Of a stretch of DNA of 64,000 nt, positions 7,880 through 55,719 are shown in pieces. Location: assembly GCA_036172245.1 (NCBI GenBank), contig JAYWIR010000009.1, forward strand, positions 558,001-622,000, read 5' to 3'. The DNA is from Raillietiella orientalis (taxonomy: Eukaryota). The notes beneath the pieces were generated by a model that saw only the letters and a program-made list of their open reading frames with translations, ran no database searches and was not told the DNA's origin. The position numbers and the translations under genes were made by a program. Position 1 is the stretch's first letter, and every line of letters begins with the position of its first letter.

Positions 7880-9905
7880 TTAATTTATAATAGCAAACTA
7901 CAAGGAAGAGGGGAAAAGAATCCCCTCAAAAACAAGAAATGCCAAAAAAAAAAAAAAATTCTTTCAGGTTAACCACCAGCATGCAGGACGACTTCTAAAA
8001 ATTGGGAAGCGGAAGGAGGGGACAATAGATAAATAAAAAAGGCAGGAGGGTGGAGGCAAAGGTCTTTGGTTAAAGGTGTTCCTTTCCTTCTAGAAGCGAC
8101 TCTGAATGATCTCTCTGGCAACTTCTGGCAGATGAGACCACATTGCTGCTGTCCTCATGAAGGCTGCTGACATTCTATCGATCTCTATTCGTCGCGAACT
8201 TGACTTCAACATATGACAGACTGTTACTATGGAGCGAATGAAACAGATTGTTGCGATTACAGCGCTCTTCTTCAGCCAGCGTCTAATGAAGAAGCGTTAC
8301 AGCAGTCCAAAGAGGTCTTCTGAGAGTTCTTCAGGGCACTGACTCCCAACTGGAGGTGCGGTATTGATTCCATTGCCTACACCTCGAACAGATCGAAGAG
8401 GCAACTCTTCCGGAAACTAGGTGTCTGCACTGATTGAACTGGAACCCCCAGTGCAGCAACAACAGAACATGCTCTTTCCAGGGTAGCGAAAATACGGAGG
8501 TGTCCACGCTAAGGAAGAAGACTACGAGTTCTCCGGGGGACACACCAAAGAAGTTCCACTAGAAGAACAACCGGGCCCTCCCCCTGAAGTGGCAGGAGTT
8601 GTCACTTCTGCTGCTGCACTGGGATATCCCGCGCAAAGCCCTCCGGTCTCACTTGACCTGGGGGACTGTGAACCCCAACTGTTGCAGATGCGGAAACGGT
8701 AATCTTTCCTGCACCTGCTTGAAGACTGCGTTGCCCTCCGGCCCCTGTGGTTGCCTTACGCAATGGCACTTGACGAACAATCTCCGGGAAGTGACGAAGC
8801 GCCTCTTCGTGCACGATGCCCTTTTTCCTGCTGCATCCCCAGCAGCTCTTTGCTGTCTACGAGGGAATGTAGCGGCCTGGAGCTACGCGAGAGGAGGACG
8901 GAAGGAGAGGACGCCATCTGCTTTGCTTTGCGCTTACTGCGAGCGGCGACAAGATGGCCCCACCTGGGGCATACCTCTGAATTCTTTCCAGGATACCGGC
9001 ATCTGCCGGTATCCCGAAAGAATTTAGAGGACGCCCTCCAGAGAACAGTGATCGCTTCCCGTGCCCCCTAGAGTTTTTTTATTATTGCTTTTTATTTTTG
9101 TTAGCCCTCTGCCCCTCCGCTGCCAAGGCGAACCTCGCCAGCCTGCGTGCCGGTTACTCGGCAGGTTCCGAACATTTTTGGACGATGTAGGGCCGATGAC
9201 CCTAAACATATATGTTTAGTATTTTTTATAATAAACGCCACGGCGTTACCGGGTGTTAAATCAAGCAGGTCATTTCATTGGAGGAGCCCCTTCTCCAGGA
9301 AAAGAGTGACAGCGTTCATCAAATCGCTCGTCTTGCAGCCGTCCAGGAGTTTCTCGACTTCAGCAATGTTGCAAGAGAACTCCCACCCCGCCGTTTGACT
9401 GCTGTCATCGTTTGCCCTGAGGACACACAGTGCTGCGGTAAGGGCTGTGAAGCTATCTGGGATCACTGTGTCCAATCCTGCAGGAGATCTCCCAGAGGAT
9501 TCCGAAGGAGACTTTGCAGCAGTCGTACTTCCTCTGGGGGCGCTTCCAAAGAGGCAACCAAAGACTCCAGAGCCTCCTGTCTCAAGGAGTTACAGTTTAT
9601 GGGGCGACAGAAGATCCACGAGTGGACTACTTGTAGATAGAACAGATGCCTCAGGGGGTAGCCAAATCCGATCCCACGGCGTAGGTTGCGCTGCAGAAGC
9701 GAAATCCTCGGGCAATGCGCTGGAAGCGCGTTGCCCGAGGATGTGGCGTGCCGGAGCACACCAATGGGAAGACCACAATTTCCCACACAGGGAGAGAAGT
9801 CGGAACTTCACCTGTAGTCCGATCTTCTCAATGCTCAGGGTGCCCAAGTCAGCGTCGTGGCGCGGTCCATCGAGACTTTCAGGCGGATCCGGGACCTTAA
9901 AGAGC
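7880..9905 (-). mobile_element. Tx1/L1-like element 3' portion, interrupted at ~8830-9262 by an oppositely oriented LINE 3' end
   Basis: IEKIGLQVKFRLLSLCGKLW (L1/Tx1 LSL.GK motif) and CSRC..ESIPHL knuckle; clear nucleotide homology to 16580-17000, 30000-31000 and 32300-33240. Confidence 0.75.
8830..9262 (+). mobile_element. 5'-truncated LINE 3' end (Tx1-like) nested in the previous element
   Basis: ORF end ...LEDALQRTVIASRAP*. The 3'UTR (ctcgccagcctgcgtgc...tactcggca...aataaacgcc.cggcg...ccgggtg) is closely homologous to 34690-34850 and more weakly to 20900-21015. Confidence 0.65.
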
Positions 9906-11329: not shown

Positions 11330-14300
11330 GTAGGGTGGCCTACTCATCTCATTTATCTAAAATGAATGGATTTTTCACAGTTGAAAAAGAATGCCGATAC
11401 GTTGCTCGTGCGGAGCGGGTCTACTTCGCTCCCTTGTCCTTTTCTTGTGAATGGTCTGCCACATCCAGCACAAAAGGAGATTTTTCTGCCAGAACGCAGA
11501 ACCCTGATATTTGCCTCACTGCTCGCTGGTTTCAAGGCATTCTCGTGGACATTGGTCGAGATCCTCAATAAGTTCCAGCGGCTCTCTCCCGACTCCTGAC
11601 GAGCGCTTCTTCCCCTCTTCACTTTGCCACGTACCTCTTTTCGAGGATGATGTCATGAAGCTGTTAAACAGCCCAAGTTTTAAGTCTCGAGAACCCCAGT
11701 TCCAGAAACAAGTTGGTTTTCTGTTGCTGCCGCCCACATTGGGTCTATCTCTTGTTCCTTCTCCGTCATTCGCCCTCTTTCCGGCAGAGTATCTGGATTC
11801 CTCTTAAGAAAAGCGTTCCGAAACGGGAAGAAACATCTCTTTGTTTTCACTTTCAACTTTGGATTGCAAGAGAGTGCCAAAAAACTCTAATAAAGATGAA
11901 TCGGAGAATACAGAGAAAGATGAGGGCGCTGACCGTGACCACCCCTTCGTCTTTCCTTTCCATTCGTTGCTTCAGTTTCCCGCCAAGCAGTTTTCTAAGT
12001 CTAACTCCTCTCTTCGTCCGGGCAGGAACTTAGCAGTCCAAGAAAAGAGTCAGTCTTGGATTACCATGGAGAGCCTTTTTGCTGCCTGAGGAAGCACCAT
12101 TTCCTGGCCTACAAGCATGTGATCGACTGAGAAAAAATTTCCAGCTCCTTGCCCTTCCAGGAAAGAGGAAAGCTTCGAGCCATTACGAAAATGACGAAAG
12201 CAAATGGCTGAGCAGTCCACTTGCTTTAGTCTTCCATATTAAAGGATTCCAGCTTTTTATAGAATGAAATAGCAGATACAGGAAGGAAATGCTCCGATCT
12301 TTCGATAGACGTGCTGCTTCTTTGAAGATGATATCTCAGAAGCTGCAAACTTGGAGGATTCAGTTCATCCTTTCCGTTTTTTTTGCCTGCACAGCTTCTT
12401 GGACTTTTGTTTCTATATGCGACGAGTAGCCCCATCCTCGAGTTGGAGTGTGACGGCTTCTCGGCCTGTGTGAGGCCATTTTGTCAGACCTGAACAGAAT
12501 CCTCCGATTGAGGGTTCTAAGAGGCGAAGACTTTCCCTGAGGATTAGATGGATGTACAGTATCGGCCGTCACTCCTGTCGATCCTGAGAGTACTGCACGC
12601 ACTTCCTGTAATCCTGCTTTCTGGCGCGATTTCCGAAGTCAAGAAACGCCACTGTGCGCTGCATTTTAAGATCTTCCGTCTCCCAAAGCGGTTTTCTTTC
12701 ACACTTTCTCTCCCCGTTCCTTGCTCATGTTTCACGGACGTCGAGGCTGTGTCGAAGCATGAGGTCCTCCCTTTTCCCTCGGAGTATCGAAAACGACACT
12801 TTGACAGCAAAGGTTCAAGGATCCCTCGAAGGGTACGCAGGTTACAGCGACTGAGAAACTGGGAAACTCACTTGCTTCCGTACAATCTTCAGCATCCACG
12901 AGGATCGAGCCGAGAGATGGAAAGGGAAAGCGTCAAAAAAGCTCTTCCGTTGCGGCTCCCTCCAGGTTGCCGGGAAGGAGTTTGCAAACGCTCTGGAGGA
13001 AGTGGCAGGCGTTCCCGTCTTTAGAACTGTGCATATCGAGGGACATCACGAAAGATCGTGGAAGAGATGCATGATTTCGGTGTGCTCGCGGGAAATGCAA
13101 AGAACAGGCGGAACCTTCGCTGATTTTTGCTCTCTGCCCCTGCTCTGTGCTTTCCTTCTCATACTGCCCTCTTGAAGAATCACTGCGTTAGCCATCCGCA
13201 GCAAAACATCAGAACCTACTTTCCATCCCACTCATGATTCCAAACAACCGTTTCTGAGTAAATCTGCCACGTGATGCATCGTCATCCGCCGTCGTGGCCC
13301 ACTGCACCTTTCCTGCAATCCCGAGCTCTCCTGATTCCCCACACTTCACCCCCAGAAGAATCTAATTACCTTGAACGATCCTCCAGCTGTTCATTGTATG
13401 AACAGATCGCATAGTCCACATTTGAATGCGTTTTCCCAAAACCCTTTCCATCTCATGCATCCTGAGCAACTAACTGTAATTTTCTGTTAGCGTGAGGCGA
13501 CTGCATCTCACTTTTGGAAGGATTTCTGGACCCCGTGAGAGCTTCCCTGTTCTGTGCTTTCACTACAAGGTCACCTTTTTCTTTGCCAAAGTGCAAGCAG
13601 GAACTGTTCCGCAGCAAGGGCATTTCGCATCCCCACGTATTGTCCGCATCAGCGTCTCTTAGCTACCTTCGAGAAGCTTGCTTCGTCTCCTGCTTTACCG
13701 GAAGTGTGGCTTTTGCAAAGATTGGACAATGCAGCTGCGACTGAATGATTTCTCCTCAGACTTCGTGAGCTTATCTCAAGCGTTTCGTGAGATAGAGCAT
13801 GTTTATGAATTCAGCGGCATGGTCTCAAATCCTCTTGGGAGCATGTAGTTAATTTTCTTCAAAGGAACATATTTACAGACAGACTTTCGATTCTCTAGCC
13901 ATTCTCAACCAAGTCATCACGAGACCAAGTGATGAGACGTCTATTTCGGCTCAAAGTACGAGACAAACTCTTACAGCACATTTGCCTTTTTCTTCCACCC
14001 CTTTTCCTAGGGTTTCCCAAATGCACTGGAATCTGGCGTTCCTATTCTCAAAAGCCAGGTCTACGGATGGCTCTACCACTGAAGAATAAGGAAGGGAAAA
14101 TGAAGATGAAATGAGAAGCTGCACAGGAAGTAAGATGTTGGTCCGGTGTTGGCCTCAAGAACCTTCACCACAGAAATAATCTCGGAACCTTCCAATCAAG
14201 TGAAGATGGTTCAAAGCTGCCATGGCACCCGGTGATGACATTTTCCTCAGTCGGCGTCCCCGAAACTGAGTTTCGTTGCACAGGAAATTCAATGACGTCA

Positions 14301-14950
14301 AAAGGGGGCTTAGGACAACTGGGAAAAAGGAAGAGATGGGTGAAATCCGAATCTTCCATAAGCTGCGAATGCATTCGAAGAGAAAGAAGAATTTTTTGTT
14401 TTCGCATTTTCCGCTCTTTTCCTCCAGTAGTCTTGAAACATCTTGAAGAAGGGAGTTATCTCACAAGAAAATGCCCGTGAAATGCAACTGTGAAGATAAT
14501 GACCGGAAAGAAAGTGCTGGATTCCTTAGCGTCCAAAGTGATGAACTTTCAGGAAGAATACGGCTAGCAGGGAGAGCTTTCATTTCAATGATCACTTGGG
14601 AGATCGCCCTCCGTCCATTTAACAGAGACAGCAAGGCAGCGGCATTAGAATTGGGTCCCTCCGAGCGCTCCTAGCAGATTCTTATATCCACTCCAAATTT
14701 CGTGCATGCCTTCGTATCCACTTTCTTGCTCTTTTCGTCCGCATGTATTTGCTACCATGGTCTATAAAACGGTTCAGCATCCTAAAAAGCGGAAAAGAAC
14801 CCATTCACTGTTTTCCCACATCTATCGTGCACCAGATGTGACGATTCAGAGAGGCTCACCAACATGAAGGAACTCGATAAGGAAACGAGGCTACAAGAAA
14901 TAGGGGAGGGAAACCTTCCTTGATCATTACTAAAATGTGCTTTTGAGGAG
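11330..14950 (-). mobile_element. 5' half of a decayed NeSL/Utopia-like element
   Basis: Zinc-finger remnants (FKCGLCD ~13420; LHCPI ~13725), nucleotide homology of 11650-11850 to 6130-6250, and pre-RT segment ANIRVLRSGRK...NVSAFFF (11353-11622). Confidence 0.5.
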
Positions 14951-15919
14951 CCCGGAGAGGAATGGTTTAGCAAACGGATGACGCTTCTTTGAACCGCTCT
15001 TTGATCCTGAATCCTACTTTGATCCCAATCGGTAGGTGGCAGTCACTCACTTGCAGATTAGCGCTGCGTTGTCTGCAAGAAAAAATAGATAATGCACTGG
15101 CACTCCAGAATTTGCTGGTTTTCTTCGAGGGATTTTCTTTAACCGCCACTGCTATGTCGCGGACTGGCTGCGGAGGTAGACCAGATGACAGAGCGAAGCG
15201 AATGCAAATTGCCATCCAAACATTCCCGATCCCTTGATCCCATCGCTGCTAAGATGGGGGAGAGATGCAAAGTATGAGACCTTTTCGTTCTTTGCTTTGC
15301 TTAACTCTTACTCTTGCCCTCTTTCTCCGAGGCAACACCACTGCCTAGTCATCCAGAATTCTTCAGCTTCCCTCACGGCCTATCCGGCTTTGCTTTTCTC
15401 TCTCTCTCTTTCTCATTTTATGGTTTAATAAGAAAGGTTTCGGCGTGATCCGGTGTCAAAATCCACCTCAGTGACTCTCTCTTCTGGCTGCGTGCATCCT
15501 AGGCAAGCAGATCCAGCAAAGAGAATTTTTGAGGGATTCTCCGGCCTCTTTCCGCACTCTACATTTTGCTTGTCCAACTACAGGAGCCATGCGCGTTGTG
15601 AGAGAAATGAGCTCAGCCCCATTCTGCGCCCACGAATCCGACTGAGTGCGGTGTGCCCCATTCCCTTGCTTCGCTCAACCTTCCAACGTCCTTTGAGGTC
15701 AAAAAATTGACTCATCCTCTGCAGGCCACGAAATCTTTGAGGTGAAGAAGGACGCAGCAGCTGAGGCAGAATCATCATTACATTTATCATATTCTCCATC
15801 TTCCTATCTTGCTGCTTCGATGATGGGGCTGGTGGTCGCAGCGAATTTTTCCCTCTTTGGCGGCATCGTTCATCTCGTCCAAGAGCTCCTGTACCTGGTC
15901 CCCGCCTCCCCTTCCCTTG

Positions 15920-16570
15920 TGCCTGCAGGTCATCATCTGGCTGGTACCCGAGCCGGTGGGTCCGGTAGGTGTCGCGGGCATAACTGACTCATGAAGCAGC
16001 CATAAGCTGCCTCGCAAAATGACGAAACCTCGTCATTTTGCGAAGGACTGCAGCATTTTTTGGATCCCGTGTTCCAAGAATACCAACGAGGACCACGGTG
16101 CTTGGCATCCACTTCTCACGGGGAAATCCGTGAGACAACATATCGATATCTGATTTCTTTGTCAATCCTTTCAAGGAGGGAAAGCACCAAATTGTCGTCC
16201 TTCTGAGGCACCAAATCAGGTCTCAGTGGCGGGCCCGCAGCAAAGGTGCGTTGATCTGCCGGCGCCAGTTTCCATTTTGCTGCTTGAACAGCGCCATCCA
16301 TGGTTGCACTAACCATCGCATCGTGCCTGGCTGTTTGTGGCGGTGATTTGTTTGTACGAGAAGACGTCTTCGTGCTTTCCAGGCACTTTGTTCTTAGCCA
16401 AAAGGCCGAGGTCAGCATCTGTTGTTCCATGCGTGGTGAGGTGCTTTTTTTTGCAGACACCAGCATAGGACCAGTATGGAACCTTTGCTCTAGTTCTTTC
16501 TCCCACGTCTTCATTGTTTTCATCCCTGCGTTCAGCAAAGGCACAAATGACTCGAAGGCAGTAAGAAAAT
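15920..16570 (-). mobile_element. 3' end (restriction-like endonuclease) of a Utopia/NeSL-like element containing the U2 fragment
   Basis: RHDAMV...DQR...LRPDLV, then VLVGILGTRDPKNAAVLRKM...ARQLMAAS*VSYARDTYRTHRLGYQ. This fits the NeSL/Utopia C-terminus pattern (VGxLGxWDPxN...SRDIYxEH..G.RQ). Confidence 0.85.
16384..16410 (-). ncRNA. U2 snRNA 5' fragment (about nt 8-34, stem I up to the start of the branch-point recognition sequence); non-functional remnant
   Basis: Minus strand reads CTCGGCCTTTTGGCTAAGAACAAAGTG against recalled U2 CTCGGCCTTTTGGCTAAGATCA(A)AGTG: 19 nt exact, then one mismatch. The rest of U2 is absent. Confidence 0.8.
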
Positions 16571-16574
16571 AGCC

Positions 16575-17130
16575 CTTCTCAATTAGGAATGCACATCAGA
16601 ACACTTTCCCGGGTGTTCCTGGCTGGTGTTCCATATACGCGATGAATCCTGAGGTGTGCGGCTGTCTGCAGGAGAACTGGAGGTGCTACTGCCTCTAAGT
16701 TGATCAACAACGAGGACAGATGCCTCAGAGAGCAGCCAAATCCAATCCTCCGGCGTGGGTTGCGTGGCAGCAACGAAAGAAGTCCTGCACTGCCGACGCA
16801 TCGCTGGAGGATACGGCGAGCTGGAGCATACCAGAGATGACCACAATTTCCCACATAAGGAGGGAGGCCGGAACTGCACCTGCAGTCCAATCTTCTCGAT
16901 GGTCAGGATGCCCAAGCCAGCGTCCTGGAGCGGCGCCACCCTCCAGAGAGAGGAAACGGAAACTGTTGCACCTCGGTCAGTTTCGTCTCTTGCAGCCCTG
17001 CAGGGCAAACCGGCATTTTCGGATGCTGAAGTCTGAGGTTGACATCCGTTTCTTGGAGGTGTCTCTTCAAGAAACGCCACTTTCGAGTGGTGTTCCAGGT
17101 GCTTGGCAATTACCTCCCTGGATTTGTGTC
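16575..17130 (-). mobile_element. Tx1/L1-like post-RT fragment
   Basis: LTIEKIGLQVQFRPPSLCGKLWSS; 16710-16940 aligns by eye to 9640-9870. Confidence 0.75.
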
Positions 17131-19379: not shown

Positions 19380-21025
19380 CCCATGGGTCCTCTGCCGCCC
19401 ATTGAGCTCGGATGCCTGAAGGCAGGTGGTGGTTGTGACCTGCACTTCCACCTCAGGAATTCTCATGGAAGTGCTTCGTCCCCTGCGCTATCTTCTCAAC
19501 GTTCCACTGGGAGATGCCCTGCAGACTCGACGAAGTGGACCCCACTGACCATCATCTCCCTTGCCGCAGTGCTATGTACGCTAAGGACAGCCAACGGCAG
19601 CATCCTACCAGCGGGAAATTCTTCTGAATCATTACGGTAGCGAACAAACTCCTTAACGACAGGAAGGAGAGCAAGATAATGCCTACCGCCACTTCACGTT
19701 GTCGGGTCAAGGGATCACCGGAAGAGCTGTTGAGTGTGTTCTTTGATGAACTGATGGTCTCTCGGTTTTTGGACATTTGAGTGTTCCCCTTGAGGTGGAA
19801 ACCGAATGTGCTGCTGTTTCTCTAACCAGCAAAGATATTTCGTGTCCAGGGGAGTTGCATCCATGTTCTGTTTGAGGTCATGCGAACAGAGTGCTCTCCG
19901 AGAACTGTGTCAGAGGGTGTCTTCAGCGCTCCTGCACCGCTGTGGAATATACCGCTGTGGACTTGCTGCAGAAATTTTTTGTGCATGGAAGATCTTGGGT
20001 GGGCTCCCTGATTGCAAGCAGATGCTGCACACGCGCCTTCATCGAAGCCCGCCATGTGATGGAGTCTCGGTTGCAGCGAAGGGTCACCCGCATGGCAACA
20101 GCCTACGTGAGGACGACTGTGATGTGGCCTCACCTTCAAGAAGTCGAGTCGCAAATCGTCGTCCTTCTGAGCCGGCACCATTCCAGAAGAAGCTCCCAAT
20201 GTCAAAGACCCTGTCCCTACCGCCTTCTTTTTATTTATTCATTCAGTTGTCTGCCCTTCCATCCTGCTTCGGACTGACCCTGCGTATTGGTGACCCTTCT
20301 TTTGAACTTCTTTTTTTGTTTTTATTTTTGTTTCGGGAAAGGTGCTCACAAGTTGTTTTATTCTTTTTTTCGCGAACTGTGCCCGCACCTATTTTGGACT
20401 GCGGTGCCCTCCAGGAATGTAGCGGAGGCTGGCAGCAGCACTCCTGCACCGGAAAGACACCGCTTGAGATGTGCTGCGACGGTTCTTTGCTCCGGGAGGA
20501 CTCTCGACGGGCGCGGTAATCGCGACCGTGGGTTGCAACCGTGCCATCGTCGCGGCCCGACATGTGCTGGCGACCACCACATAGCGAAGGGAAGTCGCTT
20601 GTATGGCAGCTTTCTACTTCGGGATGGCTGCAAGGTAAACTCATCTGGAAGAGACAAAGGAGGAGATCACCAGCATTCAGCATCGGCTGTTGGATCGTTA
20701 GGAACGGCGGACCCCGGTGACCCTGGTTTCCTACCTTCCTTTATTTTATTTTATTTTCGTTCCCTATTCACGTCTGCTTCGTAACTTCCCTGGTGTTTTT
20801 CTTTGTTTTGACCCCGGTGCGCACAGAGAGAACCCAAAGATCTTTACCCCATACCACCCAATTTACTTCATTTAGTTATTTTTCTGTCTCTGTTCCGGAC
20901 TTCCCATCATTCCAGCCTGCGTGCCAATGGACCTTCTCCTTTACTTCTTTTGTCGTCGGCTGGGAACTGCTCTCCCAACTGGTTCATTTTTTATAAAATA
21001 AGCGCCACGGGCGTCTTTTGATCTA
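19380..21025 (+). mobile_element. Two tandem Tx1/L1-like 3' ends (~19380-20330 and ~20340-21025)
   Basis: Both carry the PHL..C knuckle region and the family segment (g.tg.gga.ggctgcaaggt..ctca) shared with 30790-30840, followed by T-rich 3'UTRs. Confidence 0.6.
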
Positions 21026-22200: not shown

Positions 22201-22479
22201 ACATGGAAAGGGTCATCAAAATCAAAAACAAAAAAAAAAAGCGTGTTGGAAATCGCTTCCCTTGAAACTTAGCATCCCTTCTAAAAGGCCGGTAGTGACC
22301 TCACGAGGAGATCGTCACCATTGGCCTAGGACCAGGTGGCCAATGATTCGTCAACATTGGCTACCTGGTCCGGTTATTACGTAGAGTAACCAAAATACAT
22401 TGGTGTGGTAGAACCGTTGGTTTCACCACGGCTTAGAATCTGCCGAAGAGCGGTACGCAGACTGGCGATGTCGGCTTTG

Positions 22480-23200
22480 ACAGCGTAGGGAAGGAGAAAA
22501 CAAAAACAAAAAAAACACATAAAATAGGGAAGAGGAGGACCGTGGAAGTGTTCACAGTACAGCGCCCAGCGTCCTCTGCATCCTGTTCAGAATGTTGGTA
22601 AGCTCTGCCCGTATCACGCCCAGTGGGATCATCTCGAGACGGTCTTCAGGAAGATTTGTGTCCAGTGGATGGCGTCCTTGCCATTTCGGCCCTCTCCTTC
22701 TGGCGTTCTAGGCCACCGTAATCCTGCGAAGACAGAAGAGGACTGCGAGGGACGCGGCTGGTGGCAGCAGTGCGACACGAACGAAGAGACGTCTGAAAAT
22801 GCCCCTGGGTTCGCCAAAGAGAGGATCCTGTGATCACCACGAGGCAATCCTTAAGAAGTCGGAGAGCAGCACAGTCCAACAGCAGGTGCGGGAGGATCTT
22901 CTTCCCGCACCTGTCGCACTCTGAGCGCCCACACACCCCCGTGTCCAGTGGTGAAGGTGCGTTTTGCAAGGGATCCCCCATGCACCACCGGCAACGCCGA
23001 CTCCCACCACTTGAGGAAGAGAGTACCACTGTTTCAGCACGCTGGGGTCCGCTCCACCTCCTTCAGAGGGATGTAGAGCAGCCCTTCCCAGAATAAAAGT
23101 ACGTGGGGTGGGACACTCAAGATCGCATAATCAGTTCCCGAGCTGTCCACGTCCCCAATAGTTTCTTCTTTTCTGCTATGCAGCATGCATGGCCTAGCAT
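22480..23200 (-). mobile_element. Tx1/L1-like 3' end
   Basis: Intact CCHC knuckle SECDRCGKKILPHLLLDC in ORF 22646-23029. Confidence 0.7.
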
Positions 23201-23274: not shown

Positions 23275-24032
23275 CTTTTTGAGGGTCCTTTTTGAGTGCT
23301 GAACAGCCGTTTGTCTCCTTAGGGAAGGCTCACGAAGCTCTTGAACACTGTCCACGCCACCCGAGGGGGCGTGTAACTCTTCAAGTCAAAGAAGTAACCC
23401 AGGAAGGACCATCCCATTGAGCCCAGGAAGGGCTTCGGAGGAAGTTCTCATACGCTTGGGAGAAAACTTCGAAGGGAATCCTCATCCTGGTTGTCTGCGA
23501 AGGGAACCCTAAAAGGAACCTCTTCCACATTATCTTCGGAGGGAACCCTGAAGGGCGCCACTGCTGTAATTTCTTTTCTGGAGATCACCCACAAGGGAAT
23601 GGCTCCTTGTTTGTTCCTCTGAAAAGGATCCTGAAGGGACGCTCCCCAATTTCTCCGGAGGGAGCAGAGCGCTTCTGACACTTTGGAGAGGCAACTCCCC
23701 GAAGGTATGAACCAGCTGCATGCTACGCGATGGAGTGTCCTCCTAGGGGAAAGGGGAGCTCCTTGGTTCCTAGAAGAACCCCGAATTCCTCGAATTCCGG
23801 ATGCCCCCGTTAAGTGACCTCGTTAAAGGCCACTCATCGGGTGCATCCACCACCGGTGCCACACCCGAAGCCAAGCGAGGCCAACCAGCGTCATTCTGAG
23901 GGAAGAACTCGAAACCTCGTTGAGACGCACCCCTCGTTCTCGGCGTCGATCCTTCCCAGGGCGGGATTCGAACCCGCGGCGCTCGGTGCCACGTGGCTCG
24001 GAGTCCTCAGCCACGCGGCCGACGACGAGGGC
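23275..24032 (-). mobile_element. tRNA-derived long SINE, copy 1
   Basis: tRNA-like head with B box GGTTCGAATCC (23974-23964), shared body (gatgacgctggttggcc...ggcttcggg.gtggcacc) and conserved 3' motif acttgaagagttacacgccccctcgggtggcgtgg. Confidence 0.85.
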
Positions 24033-29994: not shown

Positions 29995-31395
29995 GATGTC
30001 AGGACTCGGTCTCGGGAACTGTCCTCGTGGTTGGAATCCCTGCCTTCGATCACCGAAACTGGAACATCAGGCGGGAGCAGGCGCTGGAGTCCAAGGTGAA
30101 CACTCTGGAAGTGCTTCGAGAAGAAATGCGACCGCTGCGGAATCGCCTACATTGGCATCTGAAAGATCTCTTGCAGAGCTGGACGCAGTGGTTCCAGATA
30201 ACCGTCACACCCCTTGCCTCAGCACTGTGTGCCCTCAGCACAAACGATGACAGCAGTTAACCTGAGGGATGGGAGTCACCATTGCAGGAGTCGAGGAAAC
30301 CCCCGGCGGCGGCAAGACAAGCGGGGGACAGTGCCACTACCCGTTCCCGAGCGAAGGCAATCCTTTGGTGGAGCGAACTGCTTGACATGCCTCCCCGAAG
30401 AACTCGTGATCTCTTCCCTGTGTGTAGTCACCACCGTGCTCCCGTTGCGGTGGGACGGGGTGTCCTGCTGCTTCTGCACTGAAGGAATCCCAGTGCAACA
30501 GCGCAGGACCTGGTTTCCGGGGAAGTTGCTGCCTCCCCGAGCTGTTCCAGGTGCGGGGCGGTGGAATCTCTCCCTCACCTCTTGTTGGAGTGCCTTCGAG
30601 GCCATTCGGCGGAGACTCTGTTAACTGATCCGCCACCGGAGGACACCGCCAAGGACTTTCTGCGACGCTTCCTTACTCAAGGCGGGCTGACGGCAGACAC
30701 CGTCATCTCCACGAGATGCTGCATCCGCGCCATAGTCGCAGTCCGCTCCGTGTGAAAGAGTCTCGTTCGCAGCAAAGGGAAACCATCCGAATGGCTGCCG
30801 CCTTGATGAGGACGGCTGCAAGGTGGTCTCACCCGCCAGAAGAAGTCATCAGAGAGATGACCACCAAACAAAGCCGCACCTAGGAAGAAGGGAAAGACTG
30901 AAACCAAAGAGCCCCTGTCCCTTCCCTCCCGCTTTTTTTTTTTTTTTTACTTTATTTATTGTCCCCTTCTTCCGTTCCTTACTTCCTTAGAAGTCGGTCT
31001 GCGTTTCGGTGGTCAACCCCAATGAACTTTTTTTTTTTGATATCTCCTGCATTCAGGGGATGCTGTGCCCCTCTGACTTCTGGTTTATTTTTTAAATAAA
31101 TCTCCCGGCGTGACTGATTACAAATCACTGGTTTCGGATGAGTCTGCTCACAGTCGTTCAAGGATTCCTTCTTCGTATTCCACTGCTCAGATTGGGTCAT
31201 TCCATCGCTCTCTGTTTCTTCCCCCCTGTCTTTTTTTTCACTTTATTTATTGTCTCCTCCCACCCGCTCCCTATTCCCTTAAAAGTCGGACTACAAGCCG
31301 ATGGTCATCCCTAGTAAACTTCTTTTCTTTTGGCATGTTTTCTGTATTCAGAGGACCCTGCTTTCCTGATTTGTGGTTCATGTTTTAAGCAAACG
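29995..31395 (+). mobile_element. Tx1/L1-like 3' end with a second, diverged copy of its 3'UTR
   Basis: SCSRCGAVESLPHLLLEC knuckle; EQALESKV..LQSWTQ is homologous to QEALESLV..LQDWTQ at ~9500. 30935-31100 is repeated with divergence at 31230-31393. Confidence 0.8.
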
Positions 31396-31779
31396 TCCAG
31401 GAGAGACCGGGTGCAAACCTTTTTCGACTCGTGCGCCGAGTTTCCTCTTTCCTGACCAGTGGGTCCTACACCTGAACGGTGTGCACATGTGGTCCACAGA
31501 GCGCTGAGGTGACCCTCGAAGAAATCGGCTTTTCCCCCGGTTGCTCCAGGACGCTTCTTGCAATCAAGAAACATACAAGGGGAGTATGGTAGGACTGTCT
31601 CTCCTACCACGTGGTCCACGGATTGAACCTGCTGAGAAGTCTATAGGCAGACCGGCGAGGATTGCCTCGAAAGGAGAGGGAAAAGGAACCAAAAAAAAAG
31701 GAAAAAGAATTCAATTTATTTTTATAAATAGATGAAAACTTTGAAAGGTCATGAAGGGTTCAATTATGCCAGCGGGAGT

Positions 31780-32140
31780 TGCACGGGGGGCTTCAGTGCA
31801 ACAGCAGAAGCGCTGACTCCTGTCATCGGAGGAGGGTGCGGTCGTCCAAGAATGCGGGGAGCCACTCGGGATCTCCACGGGGTATTCCGAGTAGCTCGCC
31901 CCCGTGCAAAAGTCCTTCCAGCGGGCTACTCAGGGTCACAGAGTCTGCCAGCTGACCTGTGGTCCAACCACTAACGCTTACCCTCTGGATCTTAGTTCCC
32001 TGTGGAGGAGAGCAGCAGGTGATGTCCGAATTCGGAGACTGGCAGACCGGACCGGACTTCAGGTCAGAGAGAGCGTGTTCCGACAGATTTGCATCCGGTG
32101 ACGCCAAAGCTTTTATTTCACATTAATAAAATAAACCTAC
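31780..32140 (+). mobile_element. 3' end of an RLE-type non-LTR element with AATAAA tail
   Basis: VVQECGEP...APVQK...YPLDLSSLWRR...QICIR*, followed by taataaaataaa. Confidence 0.35.
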
Positions 32141-33629: not shown

Positions 33630-35171
33630 TCGTTCCACAGATCCGCTCTTGGTTTTCTCCTCTGCAGATTACCCCAAAGGGGCGCTTCTGAATTTCTACA
33701 AATGGCATTTCCAGAAGGGAGCTGCGCGATTCTTGGACACTCTGGAGAGGTAGACCCCCGAGGGGGTATCAACTAGCCCGCGTCGGAGGCCTTGTGGTTA
33801 AGGCTTCCGCGTGTGGCACCATGCGTCGCGGGTTCGAATACTTCGGCAGAAACTCTGACGCCTCTGCGTCGTCGAGTTCCGAGTTTCTCCTGCAATGGCG
33901 CTGGTTGGCCGAGACATTCGGGCGTGGCACCGGTGGTGGATTAAGCCGGAGGCCCCCGATGAAGGCCGGAACAATGGGATTCGACCTTCGGGTCCTCCCA
34001 GGAATCAAGGAGTGGGGAGTTTCCCCCTCCTGTCCTGCAACGGAGAGCGGACCCCCCCACCGGGGGACCTTCCGAGTCGTCGCCTCTTCACAGAGTGCAC
34101 AAGGAAGCGAGAGCGATTTCCTGCGGGAAGCTGCAGCGCCCCTTCTGAGTTTCGGAAGCGTCCCTTCGTGGTTCTCTTCAGAGGAGTGAATAAAGGAGCG
34201 GTTCCCTTGCGGGTTCCCTCAGGGGAAGAAATTCCTACAAGCGGATCCTTTCCGGGTTCCCTTCGTAGAAGTTGAAATTAAGTTGAAATGGAGAGGACAG
34301 CCCCTCCCCATTGGTGGGGGGGTGTCCCTCCGGAGAGAATGAGGAAGGAGATTCCCTTCGGGGTTCCCCTTCGGAGACAACCAGGATGGGAGGTGCGATC
34401 CCCCCCGTCCGGGGGGATCCCTCCCCAAGCGTGAGAGGAACGGACTCCGAGCCCTTCCTGAATTCATAGGGCGAACCTCATCCCGGGGTGCCCCCTATCC
34501 TGAAGAATTACACGCCCCCCTGCGGGTTGCCGCGGGCGGAGGGGCGTGGAAACAAAATAGTGTGTTTAATGTTTAAAAAAAGAGCCACGTGAGCCGCGAG
34601 GCACGCGACCGGCTCTGAGGTACTTAGCGAACCAAAAAAAAGAAAACTCTTAAAAAATTTTATTGTTTTTATTTGTCCTTTCCCCCCCCGCTGCCGAGTC
34701 GAACTCGCCAGCCTGCGTGCTTGCTACTCGGCAATTTCAGACTCTTTATTAGAACATTTTTTAGGACGCTGTAGGGGCAATCGCCCTACACTTGCTTGTT
34801 TGTTTTTACTAAAAAATAAACGCCCCGGCGCACCCGGGTGTAAAAACCAAAAAAAAAAAAACTAGCTCCATGCTACGGCTCGCTTTTCACAACCGAAGGA
34901 GAATCCCGAAGGTAACCAGCTGCTTGATTCATTGAAGGACTCTGGAGAGTCAGCCTTCGATCCCGACCGGTCAACGGGGCATGCGGTTTCCGTACGCTTC
35001 CACCATTGCAACACCCGAAGCCTACAGGCCGACCAGCGTCATCCTGTGGGGAGACTCAAAACCCGCAACGCACCCCCCGTTTTCGGGGTCGATTCTTCTC
35101 AGGGCAAGATTCGAACCCGCGACGCTCAATGCCGCGCGCGGAGGTCGCAGTCGCATGGCGGCCAATGCGGC
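33630..35171 (-). mobile_element. tRNA-derived SINE copy 4, split into 35171-34861 and 33777-33630
   Basis: B box GGTTCGAATCT at ~35107-35117. The rejoined halves (ggggtatcaactagctccatgcta) are colinear with copy 2 (ggggtatcaacgagtcccatgcta, reverse complement). Confidence 0.85.
33776..34860 (+). mobile_element. tRNA-derived SINE copy 3 fused to a Tx1-like 3'UTR and poly(A), inserted into SINE copy 4
   Basis: Head with B box GGTTCGAATAC at 33831-33841, SINE body to ~34640, LINE-type 3'UTR 34650-34850, poly(A). Flanked by AACTAGC at 33771-33777 and 34860-34866. Confidence 0.85.
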
Positions 35172-54500: not shown

Positions 54501-55719
54501 ACCACGCCAGGAAACGGCAGGCTTCTCTCCCGGTACAGCATCTCATTCGCCTTTTTCCACAACGTACACAAAACCATCACCTCTCGGCTATCTTTCTTTC
54601 GCGCACGCAAAGTCTGCATTCCCGAATTGTCCAAAGCAACGCCTTTCAAACAGGCCGACAAGGCAGCAGCAAGCAAACCAACTCCACCTCTCCCTGCTCT
54701 GCAAACCAAGGAATGCGCCCAGCGGAGCTCCACCCCCCCGTCGCTTTCCCACTTATCCTCTGGAACAAGTGACGCGTACTCGGCGAACGAGTCCACCACG
54801 ACCACCACACTTCTCGCAGCAGCGCCGTCTGTCCGAAGGGAAAACGAAGACTGTCAGCACCATCGCAGGAAAGACTCGCACGAAACTCCTTGCAGGGAGG
54901 GAGTTGGCGGATACCGCGTCACTCCGCGTGCCATGGCAAAGTGACTGCGCCGGTGCAGCCAGCTGTTCAATGCGCCCACGCGACGAACTAGCGGCCCCTT
55001 CCTCGTGTGGAACACCTCAGTGTTTTTCCCTTCTAGTGGAAGACGCAGTTCCTGAAGTGAGGTCTGCAGTGCGATAGGCGCTGGCAACTCGTCTACGGGG
55101 GAGCCGCAACCACAAACTCGACCCCGAACCTGCTGTTCGACTGCGCTGCCCTCCACCAACTATGCCGAAAGAGGACCCTGACGCTTCGGTGACACCGCCC
55201 GTGACCCGCAGCGACGGTTTTTCGCGCGTCGCGGGCTCTCGGCTGGTGCAGTCATGGATCGAGTGCGCGCCATCGTCACGGTCGGCCATGTCTTGCAGGC
55301 GCAAGCGAAACGAAGGGCGCGGTAAGGCGTATGGCGAACGCCTACATGAGCATAGCTGCCGGATGGCCGAGAGGAAAGAGCAAGCGGAGATCGCCGGCAC
55401 CCAGCGTCGGCCGTAAAAGAAAACAAAGATCCACGCAGGGAGCCCCTGTCCCCACACAACCCATCTTCCGTTACTTTTGAATTTTCCCTTTCCCACCCGC
55501 TCCCGACTTTTGATTTCCTTTTCAAGAAGCGAGAACCATCGACCCCACGCATCACTTTTCTTGATTTCTTTCGTGTCCCCTTCCTCCCTTCCCCTACTAT
55601 TCGAAATCTCGACTTGAGTCTCGGTCACCCTCCCGTTCCACTTCTTTCCCTACCTACTAATGCTCCTGCTGTTTCTTCTGGAGCAGTTTTTCCCAATTCT
55701 TTTTTTTGTTTTTATTCAG

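Follow-up and report, generated by a model that had tools for sequence, protein, structure and literature searches.

How a short piece of U2 snRNA sequence came to lie, on the same strand, just ahead of a chain of endonuclease-like motifs is the question raised by this locus. It was addressed within the window, by which we mean the whole stretch of DNA analyzed (64 kb). The reading we prefer, tentatively and with a rough probability of 45%, is that the locus may be the dead relic of a 5′-truncated, U2-targeting LINE of the Utopia type, with a restriction-like endonuclease (RLE), in which the U2 scrap would be a remnant of the target at the 5′ junction. The element would then once have been U2-specific.

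Direct reading of the minus strand at 16410..16384 gave CTCGGCCTTTTGGCTAAGAACAAAGTG, the 27-nt sequence reported by the initial annotation. Its first 19 bases (16410..16392, minus strand) were identical to U2 nt 8-26 (19/19), which comprise stem-loop I plus AGA, and the remainder (16391..16384, minus strand) resembled U2 nt 27-33/34, the differences being one substitution and one additional A. The Rfam comparison suggested earlier supported this in part: in E-value mode, positions 8-25 of RF00004 aligned to 16410..16393 (minus strand) with 18 of 18 bases identical, but the score of 15.7 bits was below the gathering score of 46, and the E-value was 1.2 over 801 bases and 6.1 over 3951 bases. 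The low score is due to the match being short and local, not to poor identity. At the gathering threshold, no RNA family was found in the whole 64-kb window.

Reference lines for U2 are printed in the supplement of Kojima & Jurka 2015 (PMC4640811). The lines for human, Phytophthora, and Acanthamoeba run ...CTT CTCGGCC, then TTTT, TTAT, TCTT, or TTCGT, then GGCTAAGATCAAGTGTAGTA up to the insertion site and TCTGTTCT beyond it, and the fruit-fly line reads ...GATCAAAGTGTAGTA, with CAAAGTG. Among these printed lines, the first 19 bases of the 27-mer were identical to human U2 and to some of the P. infestans copies; past them, A replaces T, and the extra A is present also in fruit-fly U2. Measured against the same lines, the 27-mer differs from human U2 by one substitution and one indel and from fly U2 by two substitutions with no indel. 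The single mismatch claimed at first would hold only if the host U2 read ...GGCTAAGATCAAAGTG (a TTTT loop with CAAAGTG). The sequences flanking the 27-mer share nothing with U2 (GAC vs CTT over the 3 bases before it, CCTGG vs TAGTA over the 5 bases after it).

A pure chance resemblance could draw on the Rfam E-value of 1.2-6.1 and on a score one third of the gathering score, but it is effectively refuted by the unbroken 19-base match and its rarity in shuffles. At three mismatches or fewer, the 19-mer occurred once in the window, where 0.01 occurrences were expected (100 shuffles, 1 of which reached one), and by our own arithmetic, about 5e-7 exact matches would be expected in 128 kb, counting two strands. 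Judged by its sequence, the 27-mer is therefore U2-derived, its similarity lying beyond chance, and on this point the earlier claim stood. It is not a U2 gene: nt 1-7 and everything beyond nt ~34 are missing. What it shares with a U2 gene or pseudogene as modeled by RF00004 is stem-loop I together with the first part of the U6-pairing region; it holds only ~27 of the 192 model positions, and the branch-point-binding GUAGUA, the Sm site, and the 3′ stem-loops are absent from the locus.

Close to the 27-mer, 7 bases away and on the opposite strand, lies TCTGTTGTT (16418-16426, plus strand), one mismatch from U2 nt 39-47. Of such 9-mers at one mismatch the window contains 42, where 24 were expected; many belong to TCTTTTCTT runs, and the neighboring copy is probably a coincidence.

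The U2 match ends close to the site used by U2-targeting elements. As set out in the sections of Kojima & Jurka 2015 that describe it, Utopia is a non-LTR retrotransposon of the NeSL clade that targets U2 snRNA genes, has a restriction-like endonuclease and the domain order ZF-RT-ZF-RLE, and integrates at the nt 38/39 boundary of U2 in the same orientation as U2 (PMC4640811). According to the same sections, it has precise junctions at its 3′ end and variable ones at its 5′ end, the latter "as is observed in the cases of R2"; of 65 Utopia families, 11 had U2 flanking them on the 5′ side; and the old reptile copies lie mostly outside U2 genes, with only short U2-like strings at their junctions and mostly without U2 nt 39+ after the 3′ end (PMC4640811). 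Keno, a LINE of the Tx1 clade with an apurinic-like endonuclease, is described there as using the same U2 site. The 3′ end of the 27-mer lies 4-5 nt before the nt 38/39 site given in that source for both elements, in agreement with the earlier statement that Utopia and Keno insert a few nt downstream of this segment. For Keno, the likeness to the relic ends with this target site a few bases past the U2 segment: its APE endonuclease is N-terminal, with no RLE after the knuckle, whereas the motifs of the relic are of the restriction-like type.

Downstream of the 27-mer, which forms codons 62-71 of a 159-codon open frame (16595..16119, minus strand), endonuclease-like motifs were found. RLE LINEs include R2, NeSL/Utopia, R4/Dong, HERO, and CRE. 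In the text of Mahbub et al. 2017 on motif hallmarks (PMC5678591), RLE LINEs show, in order, a CCHC knuckle, RH where the first helix begins, PD, D/E, KX2KY, and GXW, with GXW placed just past the fourth strand. The corresponding residues of the frame are listed below together with the other features of the window.

Features of the locus and of the repeats in the window (coordinates are window positions; strand as read)
Feature	Position	Strand	Basis
U2-derived 27-mer	16384..16410	-	Rfam match and printed U2 reference lines (PMC4640811, supplement lines)
Candidate knuckle start, L67-R68-T69-K70-C71	16383..16397	-	Comparison with the knuckle spacing quoted from PMC5678591; 1 of 4 zinc ligands
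Endonuclease-like motif chain, one stop-free frame	16146..16328	-	RH/PD/E/KxxRY motifs (hallmarks quoted from PMC5678591)
RH: R90-H91	16328..16323	-	ORF 16595..16119
PD: R-P126-D127-L-V, 34 residues past RH	16223..16209	-	ORF 16595..16119
D/E: E142	16172..16170	-	ORF 16595..16119
KX2KY: K146-E-I-R-Y150	16160..16146	-	ORF 16595..16119
Candidate fourth strand and GXW: TVVLV-GIL-GTR, Trp replaced by Arg	16067..16099	-	Frame of ORF 16222..15992, via a frameshift; a reading only, after the hallmarks quoted above
Interval between segment A and the 27-mer, ~300 bases	16411..16712	-	No repeat, domain, or U2 similarity
Segment A, fragment of a different repeat family	16713..16938	-	77% identical to 9639-9865
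Multi-copy family piece	30041-31059	+	nhmmer profile
Multi-copy family piece	19391-20340	+	nhmmer profile
Multi-copy family piece	20376-20811	+	nhmmer profile
Multi-copy family piece	54709-55510	+	nhmmer profile
Multi-copy family piece	33184-32340	-	nhmmer profile
Multi-copy family piece	9611-9255 and 8604-7922	-	nhmmer profile
Second tail copies of the multi-copy family	31213-31341, 20828-20952, 55531-55646	+	nhmmer profile
Second tail copy of the multi-copy family	32332-32189	-	nhmmer profile

Sharing strand and frame with the 27-mer, the motif chain begins 18 codons (~60 bases) downstream of it. When the window was translated in all six frames, RH/PD/Kxx[KR]Y within one stop-free frame occurred once, and 2 of 500 dinucleotide-preserving shuffles reached it (mean 0.004). 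A narrower pattern, RH[DN]...[RK]PD[LIVM][LIVM], likewise had a single occurrence in the window, against 1 of 300 shuffles, and a looser chain ending in KxxxY was reached in 22 of 500. All of these patterns were fixed after the sequence had been seen, so the shuffle counts flatter the chain; even so, the only RH/PD/Kxx[KR]Y chain in 64 kb lies 18 codons past the only U2 piece.

Similarity searches did not recognize this region as an endonuclease. Pfam at E<=1 identified none in the local ORFs, phmmer of the 159-aa ORF against 1.84 billion representatives gave no match at E<=0.001, and the PDB at E<=10 returned neither R2 nor Prp8, the weak matches being unrelated (PsaD, E=0.66; nucleocapsid, E=0.37). 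Word-indexed protein searches accepted 0 of 179 candidates among longer proteins and, in a further search, 0 of 1284 candidates at E<=10, and Atlas searches gave no usable match. A single-sequence AlphaFold2 model was unusable (pLDDT 44). When six local ORFs were compared with the window by tblastn at E<=50, only noise was obtained outside segment A, and no second copy of the endonuclease-like relic was found in the window. The motif chain and its rarity favor the claimed co-oriented endonuclease downstream, no profile or database recognizes it, and the chain may, judging by its motifs and their placement, be a true endonuclease remnant.

Toward the end of the endonuclease-like frame, the two arms of a perfect inverted repeat, 14 bp long, enclose a 4-base loop (16012-16043), and the pairing extends to a stem of ~22 pairs. 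The predicted energy of this hairpin is -31.3 kcal/mol (z = -5.2), a stability that none of 200 shuffles reached; the hairpin accounts for the weak matches to miRNA models at this position.

The 27-mer had been said to sit where the CxxC of the zinc knuckle should be, and the spacing bears this out. For RLE LINEs, the passages of Mahbub et al. 2017 on the knuckle give the spacing CX2-3CX7-8HX4C and place a conserved Arg between its first and second Cys (PMC5678591). In ORF 16595..16119, the conserved Arg and the second Cys (C71) are present at the knuckle position, and the position of the first Cys falls within the U2-matching bases. Farther downstream (~16361-16341), neither the His nor the last Cys is kept, and the full CCHC knuckle required of an RLE LINE is therefore not found in this frame.

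Upstream, the locus has a different character. The reading frame is open for 61 codons upstream of the 27-mer and through it, a run that is unremarkable: stop codons are rare in the window (3.1%), so open frames mean little, and 18% of window codon positions have at least 61 open codons upstream. Counting 23 residues back from the knuckle position leads to RFHTGP, at approximately the place where the R2 linker carries KXRINALP in the description by Mahbub et al. 2017 (PMC5678591); the likeness of RFHTGP to RINALP is at chance level (p ~0.1-0.25 over 10-30 positions). The open frame and RFHTGP were accordingly rejected as an RLE-LINE linker. Farther out, the only repeat within 3 kb of the 27-mer on this side is segment A, whose copies elsewhere continue into the ~1 kb unit of the window's multi-copy family. 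Because segment A belongs to a different family and the ~300 bases before the 27-mer match nothing, the description of the 27-mer as embedded, with element-like sequence on both sides, was unsupported.

Two further proposals were examined and rejected. The first took 15900-16712 as a diverged copy of the multi-copy family; the nhmmer profile gives no match there, and local alignment to the family scores 13-14.5, which equals the shuffle means of 13.7-14.4. The other took the end of segment A (...GGCATCTGTYCT) as a 3′ end abutting U2 nt 39-46. That string is internal to the repeat family, since two copies (c9 and c19) continue from segment A into the rest of it, and Rfam found no U2 piece at the end of segment A.

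Much of what a complete U2-targeting element would show is missing. Across 7.2-22 kb, the Pfam scan of 100 minus-strand ORFs (29 + 71) of at least 40-45 aa did not turn up a reverse transcriptase, and the scanned window ORFs of at least 100 aa yielded neither a reverse transcriptase nor an APE domain. The lack of a reverse transcriptase nearby is as expected for a strongly 5′-truncated copy, and it leaves the relic, unlike Utopia, without phylogenetic placement; the N-terminal zinc fingers of Utopia are also absent from it. The U2 3′ half, sought in the window as TCTGTTCTNATCAG at <=2 mismatches, gave 0 matches against 2.6 expected, and Rfam detected no further U2 piece in 12500-16760 besides the 27-mer. 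The relic has no defined 3′ end, and U2 from nt 39 onward (TCTGTTCT...), the most regular hallmark of Utopia in the junctions described by Kojima & Jurka 2015 (PMC4640811), was not found after it. No direct repeats flanking the relic were found that would represent target-site duplications.

We consider that these observations are best explained by a decayed 5′ junction. The 27-mer and the motif chain, each rare in the window and ~60 bases apart, stand in the order and orientation predicted by Utopia biology as far as the cited account describes it, and the relic resembles Utopia, the closest known system, in its endonuclease-type motifs after the knuckle position and in the co-oriented U2 5′ fragment ending 4-5 nt before nt 38/39. 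The variable 5′ boundaries of Utopia and its old reptile copies with short U2-like junction strings, both as described in that account, are further points of likeness. The junction itself may have arisen as follows. The element would have nicked a U2 gene or a U2-like copy at the usual nt 38/39 site and used the nick to prime reverse transcription; cDNA synthesis would have stopped within the zinc-knuckle coding region, and attachment of the 5′ end a few bases short of the nick, on its upstream side, would have cost U2 nt ~35-38. Through later decay and rearrangement, U2 nt 1-7, the 3′ half of U2, and any defined 3′ end would have been lost and the reading frame broken. Several points count against a 5′ junction. 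U2 nt 1-7 are absent here, unlike in Utopia and unlike what a simple target remnant predicts; the endonuclease, seen at this locus only as a motif chain, is recognized by no search, and one of four knuckle ligands is kept; and there is no U2 3′ half, target-site duplication, defined 3′ end, or second copy in the window. The family name Utopia is a candidate assignment that draws only on the endonuclease motifs paired with the U2 scrap.

The strongest competing explanation is that an unrelated U2 fragment, either a pseudogene piece or filler DNA at a break, lies in noncoding DNA beside motifs that resemble an endonuclease by coincidence. It agrees with the blank results of the profile, database, and fold searches of the flanks, with the post hoc nature of the motif tests and the frequency of the looser KxxxY chain in shuffles, with the little that open frames mean where stops are this rare, and with the absence of both U2 ends from the 27-mer, as expected of a random internal piece. 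We nevertheless regard it as unlikely, because the stricter chains are rare (2/500 and 1/300 shuffles), because the chain follows the only U2-like piece in 64 kb at a distance of 18 codons, with strand and frame in common, and because the U2 match ends just before the site of the U2-targeting elements. Somewhat harder to sustain, and in our view quite unlikely, is the proposal that the U2 scrap was carried with the element RNA. Transcripts from the U2 promoter would bring a leader of U2 nt 1-38, and a template jump or internal deletion would yield a short derivative (leader, knuckle, endonuclease, and 3′ end) that could land anywhere; in a variant, the reverse transcriptase would have jumped onto free U2 snRNA. 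Co-transcription and template jumps are established for R2. The anatomy predicted is common to this proposal and to the 5′ junction, and a copy that landed outside U2 would be expected to lack the downstream U2 3′ half, which was not found here. In the last 9 bases of the 27-mer, moreover, similarity to U2 nt 26-33 overlaps with the codons for x-K-C of the knuckle position, in keeping with a jump at a few bases common to both. Opposed to this, a copied leader or snRNA should reach nt 1, whereas nt 1-7 are missing, a gap that fits poorly with either a 5′ junction or an RNA-carried scrap; no second copy of such a derivative occurs in the window; and the proposal depends on an endonuclease that no HMM recognized.

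The 27-mer could also be the family's own sequence, an old capture of U2 stem-loop I in the linker before the knuckle, with element on both sides. The frame open for 61 codons upstream through the 27-mer would accord with this, as would RFHTGP at 23 residues before the knuckle position, near the place of KXRINALP in R2 as quoted above. Both features are at chance level, however (18% of positions; p ~0.1-0.25), the upstream 300 bases match nothing and the next repeat comes from another family, and for a perfect 19-base U2 identity to stand in old coding DNA, either selection or a recent capture would be required; we find the idea very doubtful. A more specific version, in which an RLE-LINE lineage keeps U2 stem-loop I in its own reading frame just before the knuckle as a captured copy of the target, is a long shot. 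If it were true, the kept stem-loop could pair element cDNA or RNA with U2 genes during integration.

The preferred reading, a 5′-truncated insertion with a target remnant at its junction, has known counterparts. The 5′-truncated R2 insertions in 28S rRNA genes have variable 5′ junctions; they share with the relic a 5′ part of the target joined to a truncated element with a small target loss at the junction, and they differ in their target and in that the relic lacks the target's other half. Chimeric snRNA-LINE retrocopies such as U6-L1 arise by template switching and usually start at snRNA nt 1. In them, too, an snRNA piece stands before, and co-oriented with, a 5′-truncated LINE, but those chimeras involve L1 and normally begin at nt 1, while the relic is without nt 1-7. 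This kind of insertion is already in print, and the relic is at most one more decayed member, not a new system; nothing points to a present function. Should the reading be true, the locus would be one more fossil of the U2-targeting LINE lineage and a data point on the spread of such LINEs and on the formation of 5′ junctions, offering no new mechanism and no live element. The segment 16397..15992 together with the 27-mer is usable as a seed for better copies and for disrupted U2 genes.

The surrounding window has 51% G+C and a CpG observed/expected ratio of 0.5-1.0, and it looks free of recognizable genes. The Pfam scan covered 300 stop-free ORF translations (29 + 115 + 82 + 74), including 203 of the 207 ORFs of at least 100 aa, the other four being plus-strand ORFs at 16.7-18.2 kb; none of the 300 reached the curated cut-off. 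No tRNA genes were found in the window, and its tandem repeats were uninformative. Self-comparison revealed only old, diverged repeats (57-84% identity), including the LINE-like multi-copy family, with copies 57-77% identical. An nhmmer profile of this family (6 sequences, 999 positions) detected 7 strong pieces and some tails. The orientation bias to which the U2 scrap had been tied was not borne out: the pieces of this family, the only multi-copy one in the window, are divided between 4 on the plus strand and 3 on the minus strand, counting the copy at 16.9 kb.

The multi-copy family has a knuckle of its own (CSRCGAVESLPHLLLEC, ~30540-30590, spacing CX2CX7HX4C), after which the frame ends ~55 codons later. 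It shows no RH/PD/K endonuclease motif chain, and no RT, APE, or endonuclease domain was found in it; the layout may be that of an APE-type LINE C-terminus. Its match to Pfam zf-RVT (E=0.014, 16.4 bits vs a cut-off of 27.5) is at noise level over 300 ORFs, and a word-indexed search with its knuckle ORF gave 0 matches at E<=10.

Directly after four copies of this family stands a second copy of its own tail (profile ~850-990), and these doubled tails suggest a tandem duplication of the 3′ end within the multi-copy element itself. The copy at 9.6-7.9 kb is interrupted at 9260-8557 by ~700 bases of another repeat, which recurs at 34660-34845, 22436-23021, and 31625-31845. An inverted repeat pair of ~700 bases was also observed at 23339-23992 and 26247-25578 (64% identity), with related pieces at 34151-34388 and 34919-35136.
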